The translations under genes and the position numbers were made by a program. 52,330 nucleotides of DNA, from NCBI GenBank assembly GCA_049431945.1, contig JBMTDJ010000006.1:1-52330 (forward strand). Reading direction: 5' to 3'. This document shows positions 29,706-41,595 of the stretch, one piece after another (the stretch's first letter is position 1; each line of letters opens with the position of its first letter). This DNA comes from Candidatus Nanopelagicales bacterium. Its GTDB lineage: Bacteria; Actinomycetota; Actinomycetes; S36-B12. Below the pieces are notes generated by a model. That model made no database searches, was not told the origin of the DNA, and saw nothing but the letters and a program-made list of their open reading frames with translations.

Positions 29706-29778
29706 GCCCCCGTAGCTCAGGGGATAGAGCGCCGGTTTCCGGTACCGAAGGTCGCAGGTTCGAATCCTGCCGGGGGCG
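29706..29778 (+). tRNA. tRNA-Arg (anticodon CCG); CCA not encoded
   Basis: gcccccg/cgggggc acceptor stem, gctc/gagc D arm, anticodon loop ttCCGgt (29739-29741), gcagg-ttcgaat-cctgc T arm. Confidence 0.96.
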
Positions 29779-33510: not shown

Positions 33511-34544
33511 GAGGACTTCATGGCGGCGCGCACTGCCTCGGGGAAACGACTCGAGTGACCGAGGTAGCCCGCCAGCGACGCCGCGTCTCCCGTCGTGGCA
33601 TGAAGGAGCCCAAGCGCGGAGCCCAACGCCCGCGCACGCGCGCGCTTGGGTCCCCAGTCGGGGAGTGACTTGGCTGCACGCGCACGCGACCACACACGAG
33701 CTGTCGCTCCATCGGCACTCGTCGACCATCCTGCAAACTCCGACGGAATCAGCGGGACGCTCTCACGGGCGAGCAGCACGCGCTGCACATCGGAGCCGTC
33801 ACGCCACGCTCCGTAGTCATCCTCGCGCGACGAGGCCTCAGCCGGGGCTGCCTCGAGCAGGATGACGTCATCGGTGCCCTCTCCGCGCGCCATGAGGATC
33901 AGCACCCTGCCCGCGGAGTCGGCGAGCGCGTCGGCGACGCGATACTGCGCGAGGAGACGCGCAGCGGGCTCGGGCAGGCTCTCGCGGTACTGAGCGAGCT
34001 CGGCCCCGAGGTCCTGAGCTGGCCCGGCCTCGGCACCCCACCGGAGGCTGACGCGATCGGAGCGCAACTGGGCGGGGGCGGATTTGCCGGACACGAGCCG
34101 GCGTACCGCAGCCTCGGACGAAGCAACCGCGGCCGGCTCGATGTCCTTGGCAAGTCGGGACGCACGTCTCAGCGCTGCCGCCCGCACCGCGTGAAGCGGC
34201 TCCGCGGCGATGGCCGCGACCGCCGCCTGATACGCCTGGGCCATCACCTCGGCCGCCCCGCCAGTAAGGCCACGGCGCCGAGCGAGGTCGAGCAGGTCGG
34301 CCTCCCAGGGCCCGGGCAGCGCATCGTCGACCGCGAGAGCGTCGATGATGGGGGCTCGGGGACCTTGAACGGCGCCCAGCGCATCGGCGCACATCCACAC
34401 GACGTACCCGCTCGCGTTGTCATCGAGCGCGTCATCAAAGTCGACGTCATGGCGACGTTCGCGTCCGCGGGACCGCCGCTGTGCCGCGTCCAGCGCTCCA
34501 TCCGACTGCGGCGGATCGGCGTAGGTGCGCCAGGGAGTGCTCAC
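33507..34544 (-). CDS. Divergent DUF2252-like (kinase-like fold) protein
   Basis: ALPGPWEADL, LLAQYRVAD, LHATTGDAASLAGYLG follow the DUF2252 layout; GTG start overlaps the upstream TGA. Confidence 0.6.
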   Translation of the reverse strand: MSTPWRTYADPPQSDGALDAAQRRSRGRERRHDVDFDDALDDNASGYVVWMCADALGAVQGPRAPIIDALAVDDALPGPWEADLLDLARRRGLTGGAAEVMAQAYQAAVAAIAAEPLHAVRAAALRRASRLAKDIEPAAVASSEAAVRRLVSGKSAPAQLRSDRVSLRWGAEAGPAQDLGAELAQYRESLPEPAARLLAQYRVADALADSAGRVLILMARGEGTDDVILLEAAPAEASSREDDYGAWRDGSDVQRVLLARESVPLIPSEFAGWSTSADGATARVWSRARAAKSLPDWGPKRARARALGSALGLLHATTGDAASLAGYLGHSSRFPEAVRAAMKSS

Positions 34545-35425
34545 GCCACCGCCTCCGGGATGGGCACCTGAGTCGCCGGCGTGCGCATCGCCTCCCGAAT
34601 CGCCGCGTGCACGGTCGGCGATACGAGGTACGTCGAGTCCAGATGGGCCGTCGCGGCACCGGCCACGGCTGCTGCGAGACGGGAGAACGCATTGGCGGGT
34701 GAGGCCCAGCCCGTCGTCGGCGAGAGGAAGAGGTCGCACGCGGCCGGGAAGCTCTCGGCGAGACCGCGGCCTGCCGGCACAGGGTCCAGCAGGTGCACGA
34801 CATTGAGCCAGGCACCGATGCGGTCATAGGGGAAGGTGAGAGGTTCGACCTCGACAGCGGGCTGCGAGAGGGGGCTGCCCAAGGTGACGAGCAGATCCAT
34901 CTCGATGCGGGGGTCGGCGAGGAGATCCCAGGCGACGAGCGAGCCGAGCGAGTGCGCGACAACGACCCGCGGCCTCGGCGCGCGAAGCAGGGCGAGCGAG
35001 GCACGGTGCAATACGGCGGCGCGGCGAGCCTCGTCATCGAGGTACCGGCCCACCTGATCGAGGCCGAAAACCGGCGTGCGCAGCATCTGCGTGAGGGGGA
35101 GGCGCTCGGCGATGTCAGACGGATGGGGCAGCAGCGCCGGCCAGGTCAGCGTGCTGGACTCCCCCACGGCATCGATCATCCGCGTCAGCCGGCGCTGTCG
35201 CGTCAGGTAGTCCAGGCGTGCGCGATCACTCGGCCCGTTCGAGTCGGCGACTGATCGGCGCGCATGGACCGAGCCCGAGGTGGTCAGTACGTCGTCATAC
35301 GTCGGAGCCGAGAAGTCGACGGTAAGACCCCCGAGAGCTTCGCGGATCGGCCGCCACCACATGTCACGCGCCCCACCGACCCCATGGAGGTAGACCACGC
35401 TGCCGTGCACGGAACGGGTCGCCAC
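34541..35425 (-). CDS. Lipase-like alpha/beta hydrolase
   Basis: VYLHGVG, VVAHSLG (nucleophile elbow), VTLGSP, LDPV, AHLDSTY; TACTCT -10 box 6 nt before the GTG at 35425. Confidence 0.75.
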   Translation of the reverse strand: MATRSVHGSVVYLHGVGGARDMWWRPIREALGGLTVDFSAPTYDDVLTTSGSVHARRSVADSNGPSDRARLDYLTRQRRLTRMIDAVGESSTLTWPALLPHPSDIAERLPLTQMLRTPVFGLDQVGRYLDDEARRAAVLHRASLALLRAPRPRVVVAHSLGSLVAWDLLADPRIEMDLLVTLGSPLSQPAVEVEPLTFPYDRIGAWLNVVHLLDPVPAGRGLAESFPAACDLFLSPTTGWASPANAFSRLAAAVAGAATAHLDSTYLVSPTVHAAIREAMRTPATQVPIPEAVA

Positions 35426-35630
35426 GTGACGAGAGTACGGCCCGTGACGTCGTGCGGGCCGCCCGCCAGGCGGCTGCAGCCTGGGGGCGCTGGTCGGACC
35501 GGTGGCACGGCGGGGCAGCCGGGCGAGGTGCTGCATGGCTTCCGCATGGTGTGCGCAGGCGAGCCAGGGGCTGGCGATGCCGAACATCCGGGGCGGGTGT
35601 GACTGATCGGATGATCTGTGACTCCTGGTG

Positions 35631-35691
35631 GTCAAGTTTTTTGAAAATGTTCCGACACACCCTTGCGCTGCTTGCGCGCAGCGAATAGAAA
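35631..35691 (+). promoter_or_regulatory. Sigma70-type promoter with AT-rich UP-like element
   Basis: gtcaagttttttgaaaatgtt (35631-35651), TTGCGC (35663-35668), 17-nt spacer, TAGAAA (35686-35691, imperfect -10). Confidence 0.55.
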
Positions 35692-35697
35692 TGTCCT

Positions 35698-35950
35698 GTC
35701 GCAAGGGAAACCGAGCGGCCGGAGCAGCGGAGATCGAGTCGCAAGACGAGATCGGAGGCAACTCCCCACCCCGGTGTCGCGGGGGGGCCGAGGCTTCGGG
35801 ATCGACTGAAGCGGTGCAAGCCGCGCTGGAGGCGCCCCGGCAACGGGTGCGACGGAGGAGGGGCGACACCCCGGACTTCCCCTCACGGGACCAGTAGGTG
35901 CGATCCGAGGCGAGACCCCTGGAACTCATACTTCCAGGGGTCTCGTCCTT
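35698..35950 (+). ncRNA. Candidate structured non-coding RNA (~250 nt)
   Basis: Promoter upstream, four GCAA-tetraloop hairpins, 8-bp long-range helix, terminator at the 3' end, no credible ORF. Confidence 0.6.
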
Positions 35951-35954
35951 TATA
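35908..35954 (+). terminator. Intrinsic terminator, probably bidirectional with the converging ole operon
   Basis: cgagacccctggaa-ctcatac-ttccaggggtctcg (14-bp perfect stem) followed by tcctttata. Confidence 0.85.
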
Positions 35955-36978
35955 GGCCTAGCTCGGACGTGGATCCAGGAGCCACGCCGGAGAGGGTCGC
36001 AGCCAGATGTGCGAATCCCTCGTCCAGGCTCACCTGAGGCGACCAGGCCAGGGCGGCACGGGTCCCCCGCTGATCGAACCAATGCGCCGTGGCGAGCTGC
36101 TCCGCGAGGAACGAGGTCACCGGGGGTTCACCCTCGCGTCCCGTGCGCTCCCAGAGGCGCTCGAGCACCAGGCCGCCAAGGCGCGCGGCGGCAAAGGGCA
36201 CGCTGCGCGTGGGGCCCGGGACTCCGGCTGCCTGAGCGATACGAGTGAGCATCTCGCTCACCGTCCGCGGCTCGCCGTTGGAGATGACGAAGGCCCTCCC
36301 TCTCACCTGCGGATTCTCCGCGCGGTCCACGGCAGCGGCGATGGCCGTGCCCGCGTTGTCGATGTACGTCGTATCGATCAGCGATGCCCCGCTGCCGATG
36401 AGGACGAGTCGCCCGCTGCGCGCACGCTCGATGATGCGCGCGGTCAACTGGGTGTCCCCCGGCCCCCACACCAGGTGCGGTCGGATGACCGTCACGGCCA
36501 TCTGAGGGTCAACGCCGGACAGCACCGCCGCCTCCGCCATTGCCTTGCTCCGCGAGTAGTGACCATGGGCGCGCTCGGGGACTGCCGGCTCGCATTGGGC
36601 ACCGACGAGGGCGTATCCGGCATGCGCGACGGACGGCGAGGAGACGAGGACGAATCGGCGCACGCCTGCGCGCTGTGCTGCAGCGAGCACCTGGTGTGTG
36701 CCGACGACGTTGACTCGCTCGAAGTCCTCCCATGGGCCGGTGATGTCCACCTTCGCCGCGGCGTGCACGACGGCAGTGCAGCCGGCGAATGCCTCGTCGA
36801 GCGCCTCGCTGGGTCCCGAGATGTCCGCGCGGAAGCCGCGAGCACCCGCCGCTCGAAGTTCCGCGGGAACGTCACCGCGCTGGACAGCCACGACGTCGTT
36901 ACCGCGATCAAGCAGGGCGCGCGCCGCAGCGCCACCGACCACACCCGACGCCCCCGTCACCGCGATGCGCTCACCCAT
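35950..36978 (-). CDS. oleD: OleD, 2-alkyl-3-oxoalkanoate reductase (extended SDR)
   Basis: TGASGVVG, HAAAKV, VSSPSV, YSRSK, RPHLVWGPGDTQL, EQLATAHWFD; ATG at 36978. Confidence 0.85.
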   Translation of the reverse strand: MGERIAVTGASGVVGGAAARALLDRGNDVVAVQRGDVPAELRAAGARGFRADISGPSEALDEAFAGCTAVVHAAAKVDITGPWEDFERVNVVGTHQVLAAAQRAGVRRFVLVSSPSVAHAGYALVGAQCEPAVPERAHGHYSRSKAMAEAAVLSGVDPQMAVTVIRPHLVWGPGDTQLTARIIERARSGRLVLIGSGASLIDTTYIDNAGTAIAAAVDRAENPQVRGRAFVISNGEPRTVSEMLTRIAQAAGVPGPTRSVPFAAARLGGLVLERLWERTGREGEPPVTSFLAEQLATAHWFDQRGTRAALAWSPQVSLDEGFAHLAATLSGVAPGSTSELGL

Positions 36979-39538
36979 CGGTGCGCTCCCCGGCGAGGAG
37001 ATCGGCTGCCTCCCGGCCGATCCTCGTACGGTCGACCTTCGATCGATGCCGTACGTCGACGGGAAGTTCGCGCATCGTGAGGACGGCGGCAACGTCCACG
37101 CCCGTCTCGTCGCGCACGGCTGCGCGAACGCGCTGAGTGAGATCTGTGTCCGCAAGTCCGAGGGGCGGCCCGGGGGCGAGCAGCACGATGACGGGCACCT
37201 GCACGCCGGCCGGTCCTATACCCACGAGTGCCGCCAGCGGCGTTCGGGCCGCGCGCTGCGCCGCCAGCTCGGCGGCCACAGGCGTGACGGGCCCATCGGG
37301 ACAGGTCAGCACGTGCGCCAGGCGCCCCTCCACCCACAGTCGCCCCGCATCATCCAGATGCCCGACGTCACCTGTGCGGTGCCACCCCTCGGGTGAATCG
37401 GCCCGATGCTGGGTCGCCCAGCGACGGTCATAGCGATCGCGCATCCAGTCGCAGCGCACGATCACCTCACCCGTCGTTCCTGGCGCGCACCCTGGATCGA
37501 CGCTCGGCACTCCGGACGCATCCAGGGCGGCGATGTCGATGTCGACTCCCGGCAGCGGTCTTCCCACCAGGACACCGTGGCCGTGAGCCTCGCGGAGCTC
37601 AGCCAGGGTGACCTCCGTCAGTGGCAGTGCCTCGGTCATTCCGTACGGCGTGGCGAGAACGGCCCGCGGCAGGAGTCGACCCGCGCGCTCGAGCAGATCG
37701 AGCGGCACGGGCGCGCCGGCGACGAGCAGCGATCGCAGACCGTCGAGCGCGCGACGCTCATGCATGTCCAGATGCTCACCAGATTCGACAATGGCGCGCA
37801 ACGCGGTGGGCGACGCCCACGCGAAGGTGCCGTCGACCGCGGCGGCGGCGTCCGCGAAGGCACGAGCGCTCAGCGTGCTCGCATCCGTGAGGTCCATGTC
37901 GGGGATGGCCGAGGCGATCCCGAGCGCTGGGCCGAGGACCGACCACGGCGCGAAGGCGGCCACGAGGGCGTCCTCCGGTCCGATGCCGTATGCCCGGTGA
38001 AGCGCATCGCGCAGGTGGCCGAGTCGGGCGTGGGTGTAGACCACGCCCTTCGCCGGGCCGGTCGCGCCCGAGGTGAAGGCGACAAGCGCATCGGCGTCGC
38101 CGGGTGGCGGAGAGGGAAGGTCGGCGGTCGCGAGATGGTCGCGCCCTCGGCGCGCGACCTCGGCCAGGGAGGCGTCGGCGCCGAGCACGCGCGTGGCCGG
38201 TCCCGTGCGTCCGACGAGGATGCGCACACCTGGGAGCCCGAGCGTGCGTGCGAGACCGAGTCCCGCGGGAATACCGATCACATGCGTCGCTTCGGCTGAG
38301 CGCAGGGCCCTGCGCATGCCGCGCACACCGAGCCCGGAGTCAGCCACCACGACAATCGCCCCGATGCGCCACGCGGCGTAGACCGAGGCGATGAGGTCCG
38401 CACCGGGGGGCACGAGCAGGGCGATGCGGTCCCCCGGGCGCACGCCCATGGAGATGAGGCCCGCGGCTATCTCGCGTGTGCGCGTCGCGAGCATGGTCCA
38501 ACTCACACGCCGATCGGATCGCAGGTCCGCGAGCGCGATGCCCGGGTCCTCCGAGCGCTCCATGAGCGCCTGCCCGATCGGCCCGTCCATCACAGCCGCG
38601 GGGGACGCGGCCGGTCGCGCCTGGAGAACACGCGACTTCGTCCAGGCAATCACGTCATCGCACCACTGCTCCGCGTCCTCGATGACCAGGTGTCGTGCCT
38701 TCTCGTAGCGATGGACGTCCGCATGCGGCATTCGCGAGCCGAGGTCGCGCAAGTAGCGATCGGAGAACACCGGATCGTCCGATCCCCACGCGAGCAGCAC
38801 GGGGACATCCAGGGAGCGAATGCCGTCAGCGATCGCGTCGAGGGTCGCGGCGCTCGGGTGGTCTGCTGCGAGGGGGATGTCGGCGACGAAGTCTCCGATC
38901 GACCGGCGACGCGCGCGATCGGTGTACGGCGCACGGTAGGCCCGAGCCACCTCGGGCGGCATCGCACGGGACATCGCGGTCGTCCCGCGCACGAACGTCG
39001 ACGTGCGCCGGGTCACCGCGTCGAGCATGGGACGCGACCGGGCGATGCGGATGAGTGTTGGCGCCGGAGCGCCAGCGGGCTGATGCACCGCGGTGTTGCC
39101 GAGAACGACCCCGGCGAGGTCGGCGCGATGCTCCAGAGCCCACCCGAGCGAGATCGGACCGCCCCAGTCGTGCGCAACAGTGACGACAGGGCCGCTGACG
39201 TGCATCGCATCGGTGAGCGAGCCGAGGTCCGCCACGCGATCGGCCAGGCGACGCATCGGCGCATCCTCCGCGAGGCGATCGGAGTAGCCCATGCCGATGT
39301 GGTCCACGGCAATGACTCGCCAGTCCTCGGGTGCGAGCGCGAGCAATCGGCGCCAGAGGTAGGACCACGTGGGATTGCCGTGCACAGCGAGCATGGTCAG
39401 GGTGGGGGTGCCCGATGCTGGACGCTCGAGGACATGCATGGTGACGCCGCCGATGTCGACTAAGCGAGACCAGGCCGGATCGACGCCGGGCAAGCCCGAT
39501 AGGGCCGGCCCGGGCACATCCGGAATGCGCGCACTCAT
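36971..39538 (-). CDS. oleBC: OleBC fusion (beta-lactone decarboxylase plus beta-lactone synthetase)
   Basis: N-terminal HGNPTWSYLWR and HDWGG (haloalkane dehalogenase-like); C-terminal FTSGATGPAKGV, YGMTE, WHRTGDVG, PVDVRHRSKVDR; ATG at 39538. Confidence 0.87.
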   Translation of the reverse strand: MSARIPDVPGPALSGLPGVDPAWSRLVDIGGVTMHVLERPASGTPTLTMLAVHGNPTWSYLWRRLLALAPEDWRVIAVDHIGMGYSDRLAEDAPMRRLADRVADLGSLTDAMHVSGPVVTVAHDWGGPISLGWALEHRADLAGVVLGNTAVHQPAGAPAPTLIRIARSRPMLDAVTRRTSTFVRGTTAMSRAMPPEVARAYRAPYTDRARRRSIGDFVADIPLAADHPSAATLDAIADGIRSLDVPVLLAWGSDDPVFSDRYLRDLGSRMPHADVHRYEKARHLVIEDAEQWCDDVIAWTKSRVLQARPAASPAAVMDGPIGQALMERSEDPGIALADLRSDRRVSWTMLATRTREIAAGLISMGVRPGDRIALLVPPGADLIASVYAAWRIGAIVVVADSGLGVRGMRRALRSAEATHVIGIPAGLGLARTLGLPGVRILVGRTGPATRVLGADASLAEVARRGRDHLATADLPSPPPGDADALVAFTSGATGPAKGVVYTHARLGHLRDALHRAYGIGPEDALVAAFAPWSVLGPALGIASAIPDMDLTDASTLSARAFADAAAAVDGTFAWASPTALRAIVESGEHLDMHERRALDGLRSLLVAGAPVPLDLLERAGRLLPRAVLATPYGMTEALPLTEVTLAELREAHGHGVLVGRPLPGVDIDIAALDASGVPSVDPGCAPGTTGEVIVRCDWMRDRYDRRWATQHRADSPEGWHRTGDVGHLDDAGRLWVEGRLAHVLTCPDGPVTPVAAELAAQRAARTPLAALVGIGPAGVQVPVIVLLAPGPPLGLADTDLTQRVRAAVRDETGVDVAAVLTMRELPVDVRHRSKVDRTRIGREAADLLAGERTDG

Positions 39539-39549
39539 CGCGGCGCGGG

Positions 39550-40587
39550 CTACCAGGAGATCTCGATAACGCTGGCGTTGAGGCCCGAGCCGATGCCCAG
39601 GCACCCGACGCGGTCACCCTCGCGGAGATCGTCGGCGGCCAGCGCGAGCGTGAAGGGAATCGACGCCGGTCCGATGTTGCCGTAGCGGGGGAAGGTCATG
39701 GGCACGCGTGCCGGGTCGATGCCGACAGCCGCCGTCACGGCCTGCGTGTGGACGTTCGATACCTGATGGATGATGTAGCGGTCGAGATCAGACCAGTCGA
39801 AGAGCTCAGCCGCCTCCTGCCACAGGGCCACGGACAACTCAAGCCCCGCCTCGAGCAGTGCCCGGGAGTCGGTGCGCATCTGATTCATGTCGCCGACGCA
39901 GATGTTGTGGTGCTGGGTCGCCGCGCGGGATACGCCTCCGACGAAGCGATGGCCCTCAGGATGCTCCGTGGCCCGCCCGAGGACCATCGCCGCCCCCCCG
40001 GAGCCCAGCGTCAGGGAGGCGAAGTTCTCGAAGATGTCTGCGACGGTGGTCTCAGGTCCCTGCAGTCGCTCGATGGTGCGTTCGTGCAGTCCGCGAGAGC
40101 CCTCGCCATCGACGATCACGGCATAGTCAATCTGCCCGGCATCGATGAGCGTGCCTGCGAGGTGCATGCCGTTGACGAAGCCGAGGCAGGCATTGGACAG
40201 GTCGAAGTTGAGGGCGTGCGGCGCCAACCCAAGTTGATGGTGCACGTCGACGGCTGCGGATGGCTCGAGATGCGCCTTGGAGACTGACGTATCGATGAGG
40301 AGACCGATGCGCTCCGGAGCAACGCCCGCATCGGCGATCGCCTTGGCACCGGCCATGGCGGCGGCATCGGCGAACGTGACGTCCTCGGGCCACCAGCGCC
40401 GTTCGATGATGCCGGCCAGCCCCTCGAGGAGCCCGGGGCGGACATCGAGGCGCGCGTAGGTGTCAGCCAGGGCCGCATCGATCTCCGCTGAGGTGACCAC
40501 GATGGGTGCCTCGGCGACGCTGACGGACAGTACCGCCGTGTCCGTGAACCGGAAGGTGGCGTTTCCGCCACCCGTGCGCTCGCTCAT
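39550..40587 (-). CDS. oleA: OleA, acyl-CoA:acyl-CoA condensing thiolase (FabH/KAS III-like)
   Basis: HLEPS (Glu), SNACLGF (Cys), IHQVS (His), YGNIGPAS (Asn), GIGSGLN; ATG at 40587. Confidence 0.88.
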   Translation of the reverse strand: MSERTGGGNATFRFTDTAVLSVSVAEAPIVVTSAEIDAALADTYARLDVRPGLLEGLAGIIERRWWPEDVTFADAAAMAGAKAIADAGVAPERIGLLIDTSVSKAHLEPSAAVDVHHQLGLAPHALNFDLSNACLGFVNGMHLAGTLIDAGQIDYAVIVDGEGSRGLHERTIERLQGPETTVADIFENFASLTLGSGGAAMVLGRATEHPEGHRFVGGVSRAATQHHNICVGDMNQMRTDSRALLEAGLELSVALWQEAAELFDWSDLDRYIIHQVSNVHTQAVTAAVGIDPARVPMTFPRYGNIGPASIPFTLALAADDLREGDRVGCLGIGSGLNASVIEISW

Positions 40588-40665
40588 CAGATCCTTCCCA
40601 CAGGAGGACAAGTCTCACATGTGCCTCCTTGGGGCGCCCGCTGCCCCTCGGCGGGGCCGGGGGGC

Positions 40666-41595
40666 TCACTCGGGGTCGCCGGACTCCCTGTCGTGCATGT
40701 CCGCGAGGAACTGCTCGACCTGGGCCGCAATCTCGTCACCCGACGGCACCTGGCCGCCCGGGGCGAGCTCGGAACCCGCGATCGTGGGCTGCCCGGCAGC
40801 ACCCCTCAGGGCGGCCAACTGGTCGTACTGCTGCTCCAGGGCATGGACGATGGTGACGAACTCCTCGCTGTTCTGCAGTTGCTGGGCGATCTCCCCCTCC
40901 GCACGGGATGCGGGAGCGCGCAGGTCATCGACGGGAAGCACGAGCCCGGTGGTGGAGCCTAGAGCCTCCAGCGCGGTGATGGCCGCGGACGGGTATTCGA
41001 ACTGGCCGAGGTAGTGGGGCACGTGCGTGGCGATGCCGATCGCCTGCTCGCCTGCCTCGCCGAGTCGCAACTCCAGCAGTCCACCGATGTGGCCGGGCAC
41101 CTGCAGGTTGCCCGCCACGGTATGCGGACTGGAGACCAGGGAGGGCACGTTGCCGTGCACGGTTACGCCGAGAGGGCGAGTGTGCGGTGCCGGCCACGGG
41201 ATCGCCGACAGGCCCACGGTCAACTTCGTACCGGTGCGCCGCACGATCTCGAGGATCTCGTCAGAGAAGCGCTGCCACTGGTAGTCCGGCTCCGGACCCG
41301 TGAGCAGCAGGAACGGCGTGCCCGCGGCGTCGGTGACCTCATGCAGGGCGATCTGTGGCATGTCGACCGCAGCGAAGTGGTCTGCAACGAAGGTGAGCAC
41401 GGGCCGGCGGGCCCGGTAGTCCAGGACCTGGTCGACATCGAAGGTGGCCAGCAGACGCGGGTCGCGAGCCTGGAGCGCGCGAGCGGCCATGGCGGTCGCG
41501 CCGCCCGCATCGAGGAATCCCGTGAACGCGTGTACGAGGACGTGACGGCCCTCCACCGGGGTGGGGTCGCCGTGCCAGGTGACGAGCGAAGTCAT
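40666..41595 (-). CDS. PAC2 (proteasome assembly chaperone-like) family protein
   Basis: GFLDAG, DYRARRP, GPEPDYQW, HVPHYL, LEQQYD, EIAAQVEQFL. Confidence 0.9.
   Translation of the reverse strand: MTSLVTWHGDPTPVEGRHVLVHAFTGFLDAGGATAMAARALQARDPRLLATFDVDQVLDYRARRPVLTFVADHFAAVDMPQIALHEVTDAAGTPFLLLTGPEPDYQWQRFSDEILEIVRRTGTKLTVGLSAIPWPAPHTRPLGVTVHGNVPSLVSSPHTVAGNLQVPGHIGGLLELRLGEAGEQAIGIATHVPHYLGQFEYPSAAITALEALGSTTGLVLPVDDLRAPASRAEGEIAQQLQNSEEFVTIVHALEQQYDQLAALRGAAGQPTIAGSELAPGGQVPSGDEIAAQVEQFLADMHDRESGDPE

Follow-up and report, generated by a model that had tools for sequence, protein, structure and literature searches.

A free-standing structured RNA of Candidatus Nanopelagicales and its relatives across the Actinomycetota

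The 52,330-nucleotide (nt) stretch of DNA analyzed here (the window; positions 1 to 52,330 of contig JBMTDJ010000006.1, assembly GCA_049431945.1, from a Candidatus Nanopelagicales bacterium) carries on its plus strand, at 35698-35949, an independent gene for a non-coding RNA of about 252 nt, hereafter the window RNA, which is free-standing and single-copy in the 2.3-Mb source genome (94.3% complete). An initial annotation made from the letters of the window had proposed a free-standing, abundant, multi-branched non-coding RNA at this site, and this core interpretation is supported by promoter-like elements conserved across orders, by covariation in every helix and by contigs from RNA libraries, from which true abundance is not derivable. 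Beyond the view of that annotation, the window RNA is one member of a far larger family. The predicted fold starts with a GNRA-capped 5' hairpin, after which come two domains of several helices each, linked to one another by a loop-loop helix of 6 bp. Judged by sequence comparison, members of this large actinobacterial family have in common the promoter type, a GNRA-rich architecture and, most constantly, a 3' hairpin with the loop CUCAUAC, while the body varies in sequence and length. Our preferred reading, to which we give a probability of roughly 0.45, is that the RNA is a trans-acting folded particle, with a loop on its 3' hairpin that a conserved partner, likelier a protein than an RNA, would read.

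The window RNA occurs in environmental RNA libraries. Twenty-four RNA runs from 17 studies contain 12-25% of the sampled words of the 601-nt stretch 35500-36100, and contigs were placed for four of these runs, from four studies recorded as marine, aquatic, riverine and freshwater. All four runs have contigs on the window RNA, lying between 35704 and 35949; the deepest single contig listed there reaches a depth of 4434.8. One X1 contig covers 35909-35949 and then continues into 25 A, and this poly(A) run fixes the plus strand and places the 3' end two bases past the 3' hairpin. No contig lay on 35400-35696 or 35967-36200 in the four runs, uncovered parts not counting as evidence.

It is barely credible that the region holds no independent RNA gene, being instead the 3' untranslated region or terminator of the neighboring oleD-like gene joined to a leader or riboswitch of the minus-strand open reading frame (ORF) 34541-35536, or else the coding sequence of a 513-amino-acid (aa) ORF. 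Such a reading could draw on the stop codon of the oleD-like gene at 35950-35952, which abuts the 3' hairpin, on the open frame 34541-36082 that crosses the region, and on a minus strand that folds somewhat better than its shuffles (z -2.15). Close relatives, in contrast, differ by 1- and 2-nt indels within the RNA stretch, which excludes a conserved reading frame, and for this reason we read the 513-aa ORF as a high-GC artefact; the 331-aa ORF that shares its frame has no Pfam match. Moreover, the GNRA loops, the promoter elements and the poly(A)-tailed contig are all on the plus strand, the covariation tracks plus-strand pairs, G-U included, and the RNA is kept with entirely different neighbors and orientations among members of the wider family. 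Given the abutting stop codon, the 3' hairpin may also serve the oleD-like gene. The spanning frame 34541-36082 on the minus strand is one that an automatic annotator could mistake for a gene.

The case for structure is carried by comparison with relatives, a check that the initial annotation had called for. A DNA search of 61 related genomes returned matches to the stretch from 30, at 67-95% identity; the genus itself accounts for 25 of these, out of 28 genomes besides the source. On a MAFFT alignment of 26 homologues, fitted to no structure, RNAalifold predicted 44 pairs, and compensatory changes occur in 23 of these. When the loop-loop helix is included (50 pairs), 97.1% of cells are paired, compared with 88.9 +/- 0.4% in shuffles, and 26 of the 50 pairs are compensatory, compared with 12.3 +/- 2.0 in shuffles (0 of 500 reach 26) and 3-8 in slid controls. 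A covariance model (CM), R1, was built from 16 close sequences; it matches the window at 35698-35951 with 273.9 bits and was used to align 27 sequences. In this CM-fitted alignment, which leans to the model and is thus optimistic overall, slightly pessimistic where locus L020 and the P1 helix of L025-L027 are misplaced, 60 of 87 pairs are compensatory (29.9 +/- 3.3 shuffled, 14-22 slid) and all 16 helices hold at least one compensatory pair. The plus strand folded with its 3' hairpin has a z of -4.11, 0 of 200 shuffles being as stable, and the minus strand is the weaker of the two.

The AT-rich patch, the TTGCGC-N17-TAGAAA motif and the five hairpins of the initial annotation are all present in the window, and comparison with relatives sorts the hairpins. 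Four of them, P3, P4, P7 and P9, are conserved. The fifth, ccga[ggct]tcgg at 35788-35799, is not a conserved pairing, because GCUUCG 35793-35798 pairs with CGGAGC 35720-35725; a pairing suggested between the 5' end (35698-35703) and 35899-35904 is likewise not conserved, and GUCGC 35698-35702 pairs locally with GCGGC 35715-35719. The 8-bp long-range helix, on the other hand, was correctly recognized and is supported as a covarying kissing interaction. Three of the six pairs of its conserved core are compensatory in the MAFFT alignment (G-C/A-U, U-A/C-G and G-C/U-A) and a further one shows U-A/U-G; 94.9% of cells are paired in an alignment not fitted to the helix, and relatives carry the loop variants GUGUCU/AGACAC, AUGUCG/CGACAU and GUGCCU/AGGCAC. 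Divergent members close Domain I by different sequences in their own minimum-free-energy folds. A 24-nt degenerate pattern of P9, the body stretch most conserved in sequence, matched 19 records, mostly titled as Nanopelagicales, Actinomycetota or Actinomyces metagenome-assembled genomes (MAGs). The same P9 pattern is present in a record titled uncultured Planctomycetota MAG (L042), which has no R1 match at E<=0.001; this may be a coincidental match, or the record may be fragmentary or mislabelled.

The window RNA is preceded by promoter-like elements whose composite -35/-10 motif occurs once in the 2.3-Mb source genome, directly upstream of the RNA, and the -10-like 7-mer is present in none of the 39 tRNA upstream regions of that genome. 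Read directly, the T-A and the final T of the -10-like element lie one base too far apart for TANNNT. Across the wider family a TA[GC]A[AC][ACT]T 7-mer lies upstream of 97 of 146 distinct hairpin-bearing sequences, and in the family listing it is preceded by CTTGYGC (the -35 element being judged by eye and uncounted) and by A-rich stretches upstream of TTGYGC. GC content, which is 0.674 in the source genome, falls to 0.425-0.475 across 35600-35659. At the other end of the gene, the terminator foreseen in the initial annotation exists as a hairpin, with a stem of 16 rather than 14 pairs and with a T-tract of merely TTT. A canonical intrinsic terminator, defined as a G+C-rich stem followed by at least five T in eight, was not found here, the tail reading CCTTTAT; with its stem in place and the end of an RNA contig 2 nt beyond, the hairpin still marks the 3' end, and it is probably the transcription stop. 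No plus-strand gene lies downstream of the 3' hairpin at this locus, and the earlier remark that no plus-strand gene here needs terminating agrees with the minus-strand position of both neighbors. Table 1 collects the features of the locus.

Table 1. Features of the window RNA and its locus. MAFFT and CM-fitted name the alignment from which a count of compensatory pairs is taken.
Feature	Position	Strand	Remarks
A/T-rich patch, UP-element-like (putative function)	35631-35651	+	genus consensus GTCAAGTTTTTTGAAAATGT
-35-like element TTGCGC	35663-35668	+	CTTG(C/T)GC kept in the genus and in distant family members
-10-like 7-mer TAGAAAT	35686-35692	+	17-nt spacer after the -35-like element; genus consensus TAGAA(A/C)T
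Window RNA	35698-35949	+	5' end placed from promoter and first helix; 3' end from poly(A)-tailed RNA contig
P1, 5' hairpin GUCGC-AA-GG-GAAA-CC-GA-GCGGC	35698-35719	+	GNRA loop, AA/GA internal loop; 7/7 pairs compensatory (CM-fitted), 3/6 (MAFFT)
Domain I, holds P3, P4, P5; closed by P2 (35720-35725 / 35793-35798)	35720-35798	+	P2 4/6 pairs compensatory (CM-fitted)
P3 GAUC-GA-GUC-GCAA-GAC-GA-GAUC	35732-35753	+	GNRA loop, tandem G.A internal loop; 4/5 pairs compensatory (MAFFT), 6/7 (CM-fitted)
P4 GGAG-GCAA-CUCC	35754-35765	+	3/4 pairs compensatory (CM-fitted)
P5 CCCCG-GUGUCG-CGGGG	35769-35784	+	loop 35774-35779 is the 5' half of the loop-loop helix; 4/5 pairs compensatory (CM-fitted)
Kissing (loop-loop) helix GUGUCG / CGACAC	35774-35779 / 35864-35869	+	extendable to 8 bp here (35773-35780 / 35863-35870)
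Domain II, holds P7-P11; closed by P6 (35799-35807 / 35897-35906)	35799-35906	+	9/9 pairs compensatory, 88.9-91.3% of cells paired (CM-fitted)
P7 GCGGU-GCAA-GCCGC	35811-35824	+	4/5 pairs compensatory (CM-fitted)
P8	within Domain II, between P7 and P9 in model listing	+	
P9 GGCGCCCCG-GCAA-CGGGUGCGAC	35831-35853	+	most sequence-conserved body stretch; nearly invariant in 26 sequences
P10, outer GGAG/CUUC, inner GGGG-CGACA-CCCC	35854-35879	+	loop region 35864-35869 is the 3' half of the loop-loop helix; MAFFT and CM-fitted alignments
P11 CCC-UCAC-GGG	35880-35889	+	U-A/C-G swap in 11/26 (MAFFT)
3' hairpin, 16-bp stem, 7-nt loop CUCAUAC (35925-35931)	35909-35947	+	9/16 pairs compensatory (MAFFT)
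331-aa ORF, divergent neighbor	34541-35536	-	no Pfam match; frame stays open through the RNA to 36082 (513 aa)
oleD-like NAD-dependent 3-beta-hydroxysteroid dehydrogenase/epimerase gene, convergent neighbor	35950-36978	-	Pfam PF01073 2.7e-31, PF01370 6.5e-29

By Pfam, the oleD-like gene is the last of an oleA / oleBC-fusion / oleD cluster. The cluster occupies 35950-40611 on the minus strand (FabH-like OleA, 39550-40611; a fused alpha/beta-hydrolase and AMP-ligase OleBC, 36971-39604; OleD-like, 35950-36978), and a PAC2-family gene stands after it at 40666-41595, these assignments being from Pfam only.

Within the taxonomic family of the window the locus is orthologous across genera, the RNA adjoining oleD-like and/or tgt genes. 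The oleD-like gene adjoins it in seven loci from two genera (L018, L019, L021, L025, L059, L063 and L064). The tgt gene (queuine tRNA-ribosyltransferase, PF01702) adjoins it in L055, L056, L058, L059, L060, L065 and L066, divergently in L059, an adjacency that may be inherited gene order. In the same taxonomic family the promoter-to-hairpin distance is 215-241 nt and individual folds show an equivalent two-domain layout.

R1 matches in other genera and families of the order have a near-unchanged 3' hairpin on differing bodies, some of them aligning over the hairpin alone. An exact hairpin pattern, with five fixed stem bases per side, four free pairs and the loop CTCATRC, was found in named records at 121 loci at least, nearly all from Actinomycetota. 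The matches listed include Kribbella and Phycicoccus as named carriers, as well as MAGs titled Streptosporangiaceae, Frankiaceae, Nocardioidaceae, Propionibacteriales, Geodermatophilaceae, Jatrophihabitantaceae, Jiangellaceae, Micrococcales and Nanopelagicales. Among 125 matches listed, the four free stem pairs are fully complementary in 100, complementary at three of four in 19 and at two or fewer in 6. In an even sample of the class, 106 of 401 genomes hold the pattern (103 of 398 once three unpublished ones are set aside), and none holds the reversed-pattern control. The distribution is strongly family-specific (21/22, 12/17 and 10/12 in three coded families), and the pattern was not found in several other groups of the class sample, including the large-genome genus g45. 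A phylum-level search with R1 gave 0 of 150 genomes, with 13 candidates per genome scored, which we do not take as a meaningful negative.

Hairpin copies number one to four per genome, and some stand in tandem, presumably as tandem RNA genes. Tandem arrays with a spacing of about 420-1060 nt are seen at G337:C1:1889465-1891503, G340:C1:1328375-1329895 and G379:C51:107224-108226, and also in genomes G468, G406 and G433.

A search anchored on the promoter pattern rather than on the hairpin, in 120 genomes of the class, returned 21 matches outside the source genome. In 16 of these a hairpin with a new stem and with the loop exactly CUCAUAC follows 151-428 nt downstream; two more are followed by a hairpin with the loop CCCUUAC, and three lack such a hairpin. 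All three marks of the family, TTGYGC-N16-19-TAGAAMT, a 5' GNRA hairpin and a terminal hairpin with the loop CUCAUAC, are found in the window. Members with the CCCUUAC loop, about 330 nt long and with the same promoter and GNRA hairpins, occur in genus g219 (L229 and L230) and in Jiangella, Haloactinopolyspora and Phytoactinopolyspora (L234-L245), where CCCUUAC amounts to a naturally occurring double mutation in a loop that is otherwise constant (CUCAUAC).

On the reading that we prefer, the RNA would be a compact folded particle and not a linear antisense strand. GNRA loops, tandem G.A modules and the kissing helix would build a rigid, nuclease-resistant scaffold, and the 3' hairpin would be its working end, exposing a 7-nt loop on a long C-rich/G-rich stem to a conserved partner. 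This partner would most likely be a protein, giving a ribonucleoprotein (RNP), and less likely a structured RNA, and the dedicated conserved promoter suggests that the RNA may be produced under one particular regulatory regime. Very different bodies joined to a constant 3' hairpin look like the evolution of a scaffold, and we counted this pattern in favor of a folded particle. The near-invariant loop, the covarying kissing helix and the conserved promoter provide handles for a partner search.

A number of points weigh against this reading. Binding of a partner is conjecture drawn from the sequences. The counts of the hairpin pattern presuppose the loop by construction, and the loop is not strictly invariant, reading CCCUUAC in Jiangella-type members and CUCAUGC in 9 of 119 hairpin matches listed. 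Tandem arrays of two to four copies are more typical of base-pairing small RNAs (sRNAs). The promoter was assigned by conservation alone, with a deduced start site, and by itself the promoter pattern is not above its reversed control (21 matches outside the source genome versus 20); it is useful solely as an independent anchor. A consensus scan of 35000-36500 found 0 sigma-70-type promoters and 0 canonical terminators, so that the promoter and 3'-end assignments rest on comparison and on the RNA contigs, which themselves give no true starts or abundance and come from libraries that may contain DNA. Finally, the RNA body without its 3' hairpin folds at a z of only -2.02, with 7 of 200 shuffles as stable, and thermodynamics alone is therefore insufficient to make the case for a structured RNA.

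The most serious contender, which we consider unlikely, is that the RNA is a base-pairing sRNA whose loop CUCAUAC serves as a seed for GUAUGAG, a heptamer that contains AUG, at the translation starts of mRNAs, the body merely stabilizing the molecule. No element of the family is more constant than the loop, and it begins with a YUNR-type CUCA, as in antisense recognition loops. Antisense RNAs with YUNR U-turn recognition loops exist, LhrC-type sRNAs use a terminator loop as seed, and tandem or multiple copies, which several genomes have here in numbers of two to four, are often found among base-pairing sRNAs, PrrF, AbcR and LhrC being examples. Three long ORFs of the source genome start inside GUAUGAG and are candidate targets, encoding a 2-oxoacid dehydrogenase E2, an alanine dehydrogenase/PntA-like protein and a Bmp-family binding protein; these genes are, however, unrelated and share no theme, and none of the 49 occurrences of GTATGAG in the source genome lies in a partner hairpin. 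A seed of seven bases in a closed hairpin loop is also short, two covarying domains and a kissing helix exceed the needs of known seed-type sRNAs, and Hfq is not known in actinobacteria.

An internal GYAUGAG complementary to the loop in genus g7 also speaks for base pairing. The complement is perfect in L057 (GCAUGAG / CUCAUGC) and L059 (GUAUGAG / CUCAUAC), which suggests that the loop could pair with RNA, and it extends to six of seven positions in L064, L083 and L101. The window RNA has no internal GYAUGAG segment. GYAUGAG(C) stands just after a GNRA hairpin in L057, L059, L063 and L064 of genus g7 as well as in L083 and L101, and in g7 it may form an intramolecular pseudoknot.

The resemblance of the loop to an anticodon loop raises a further option, a mimic of the tRNA anticodon arm or a codon-presenting loop that would engage MetRS, TilS, the ribosomal P site or a tRNA; we hold it to be highly improbable. 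CUCAUAC agrees at six of seven positions with the CUCAUAA loop of both tRNA(CAU) genes detected in the source genome, a purine (A or G) fills its sixth position, as at position 37 of tRNAs, and its closing pair covaries. However, the stem has 16 pairs and not 5, the base equivalent to position 38 is C and not A, and the Jiangella-type CCCUUAC lacks an equivalent of the universal U33. Adjacency to tgt, the gene of an enzyme that modifies tRNA anticodon loops, in seven loci of the same family could be added in its favor, but it is confined to that one family, and TGT recognizes UGU, which the loop does not contain.

Another rival to the folded particle is an RNA polymerase (RNAP) binder, an abundant RNA that would sequester or store the enzyme as 6S, Ms1 or CoRP do, in organisms where neither 6S nor Ms1 is detectable. 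Consistent with this, the source genome has no matches to 6S RF00013, Ms1 RF02566 or 6C RF01066, the RNA contigs are of high depth, the promoter is dedicated and conserved, and in a single case (n=1) an Ms1, that of Phycicoccus, is preceded by a similar -10-like 7-mer, TAGACAT. PMC11077062 proposes a single abundant RNAP-associated RNA for every species and predicts that further classes of this kind exist. Against an RNAP binder stand a structure that is not a rod with a central bubble, the lack of HAD-hydrolase or 6C synteny, and the coexistence of a family member with an Ms1 homologue in Phycicoccus sp. Soil802, and we regard this option as improbable.

In that genome the published Ms1 lies at NZ_LMSS01000002.1:561526-561631 (PMC9130861 supplement) and the CUCAUAC-hairpin RNA on a separate contig, at NZ_LMSS01000004.1:369463-369487. 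The Ms1 locus has the motifs of the Streptomyces coelicolor Ms1 and a 6C-like match (44 bits) 200 nt downstream. Such coexistence, in one genome, indicates that the family is not simply a replacement of Ms1. A BLAST comparison of the Phycicoccus Ms1 region with Kribbella and Jiangella gave one 23-nt match (E 0.0056), which proved unrelated on alignment, with no 6C nearby. In the extracted locus (L207, NZ_LMSS01000002.1:561300-562250) the 6C-like element occupies 527-601, its 44 bits comparing with an Rfam threshold of 47. The Phycicoccus Ms1 is preceded by GGTAGACAT, a 7-mer type of the form TA-N4-T like that of the family promoter.

Searches against known families bear out the suspicion of the initial annotation that the RNA belongs to an undescribed actinobacterial class and is not 6C, Ms1 or raiA, the latter point by model, synteny, structure and coexistence tests. 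At gathering thresholds, Rfam 15 (4227 models) matched the whole window only at 29706-29778, a tRNA of 64 bits, and on 35400-36100 at E<=10 it returned only mir-607, a chance match on the hairpin with 18.7 bits against a threshold of 94. Twenty further family loci gave no match at E<=0.1, nine more gave tRNA only at E<=0.01, and three more, at E<=1, gave the 6C-like match beside Ms1 and a weak P10 match. For Ms1 RF02566 there was no match at E<=10 on 35400-36100 nor at E<=0.001 in the source genome, the Rfam model reaching only close relatives of mycobacteria according to PMC9130861. 6C RF01066 matched neither the window nor the source genome, and 6S RF00013, whose model matched in five control genomes, neither 35400-36100 nor the source genome. 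The raiA model RF03072 had no match at E<=10 on the region and none in the source genome, a search in which no control genome matched; the model does work, finding in genome G184 a true raiA RNA of 138.2 bits at a locus separate from the two hairpin RNAs of that genome. Given these separate Ms1 and raiA loci in carriers and the lack of model matches, the window RNA belongs to none of Ms1, 6S, 6C and raiA. A cis-regulatory leader or riboswitch was considered and rejected, the downstream gene being convergent here and neighbors and orientations varying across family members. No RNA with this loop, promoter or distribution was found described in Rfam 15 or in the literature within reach, which leaves out subscription journals, bioRxiv supplements and supplementary motif lists; the accessible part of PMC11109978, the most likely survey paper, describes no such RNA.

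We put forward tentatively, as a reading less likely than not, that the window RNA is the first known case of a structured RNA class of Actinomycetota which is absent from Rfam, is highly expressed and spans the class or perhaps the phylum. It would be an RNP or tertiary-structure-dependent RNA that takes part in a core process (transcription, translation or RNA turnover), acts through the almost invariant U-turn loop on its 3' hairpin and is driven by a dedicated promoter type off the TANNNT spacing. If so, it would rank alongside Ms1, 6S and raiA and not among lineage-specific sRNAs. The novelty lies at the level of the RNA class, and the mode of action may prove familiar. Few bacterial RNAs are both widespread and intricately folded, and the solved ones (RNase P, 6S, tmRNA, riboswitches, Ms1) have each exposed a basic cellular mechanism. 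Found in roughly a quarter of the sampled class genomes, the present family shows that Rfam-based annotation still overlooks a major actinobacterial RNA. Its carriers include the cultured and harmless genera Kribbella, Phycicoccus and Jiangella, which makes genetics and biochemistry feasible, as well as abundant uncultured freshwater lineages, where contigs from RNA runs cover the RNA.

Among known systems, Ms1 (RF02566; MTS2823 / scr3559) is like the window RNA in being actinobacterial, free-standing, abundant and 230-300 nt long, with its own conserved promoter and a terminator hairpin (PMC4191392 and PMC9130861). As its marks these sources give a rod of the 6S type that contains a bubble, synteny with a HAD hydrolase and 6C, and binding to the RNAP core. 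The window RNA, in contrast, is multi-branched with a kissing helix, and it is flanked by the oleD-like gene and a Pfam-less ORF instead of the HAD-IB hydrolase/oxidoreductase and 6C neighborhood. No HAD domain was found beside the Kribbella or Phycicoccus family members, and by eye the S. coelicolor Ms1 and the window RNA have no motif in common. 6S (RF00013) offers a parallel as a stable, abundant RNA transcribed from a promoter of its own and as a candidate global regulator, yet its long irregular duplex with a central bubble is not seen in the window RNA. 6C (RF01066) is an actinobacterial small RNA of G+C-rich hairpins, but of 75 nt and with C-rich loops.

The raiA motif (RF03072; ModT) resembles the window RNA as a complex-folded, free-standing RNA of about 200 nt with multi-stem junctions and pseudoknots, found in Actinomycetota and peaking near stationary phase (PMC10861870). 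It differs in its 51 conserved nucleotides, helices P1-P8 and two pseudoknots, where the CUCAUAC-hairpin family joins a variable body to a constant 3' hairpin, and in lying typically between raiA and comFC as a single copy, whereas the window RNA lacks those neighbors and the family has one to four copies. With the loop-seed RNAs, namely YUNR U-turn antisense RNAs and LhrC-type sRNAs, the family shares a short conserved pyrimidine-U-N-purine loop (CUCA) on a terminal hairpin and tandem gene copies in some genomes; the window RNA, however, is much larger and has tertiary structure.

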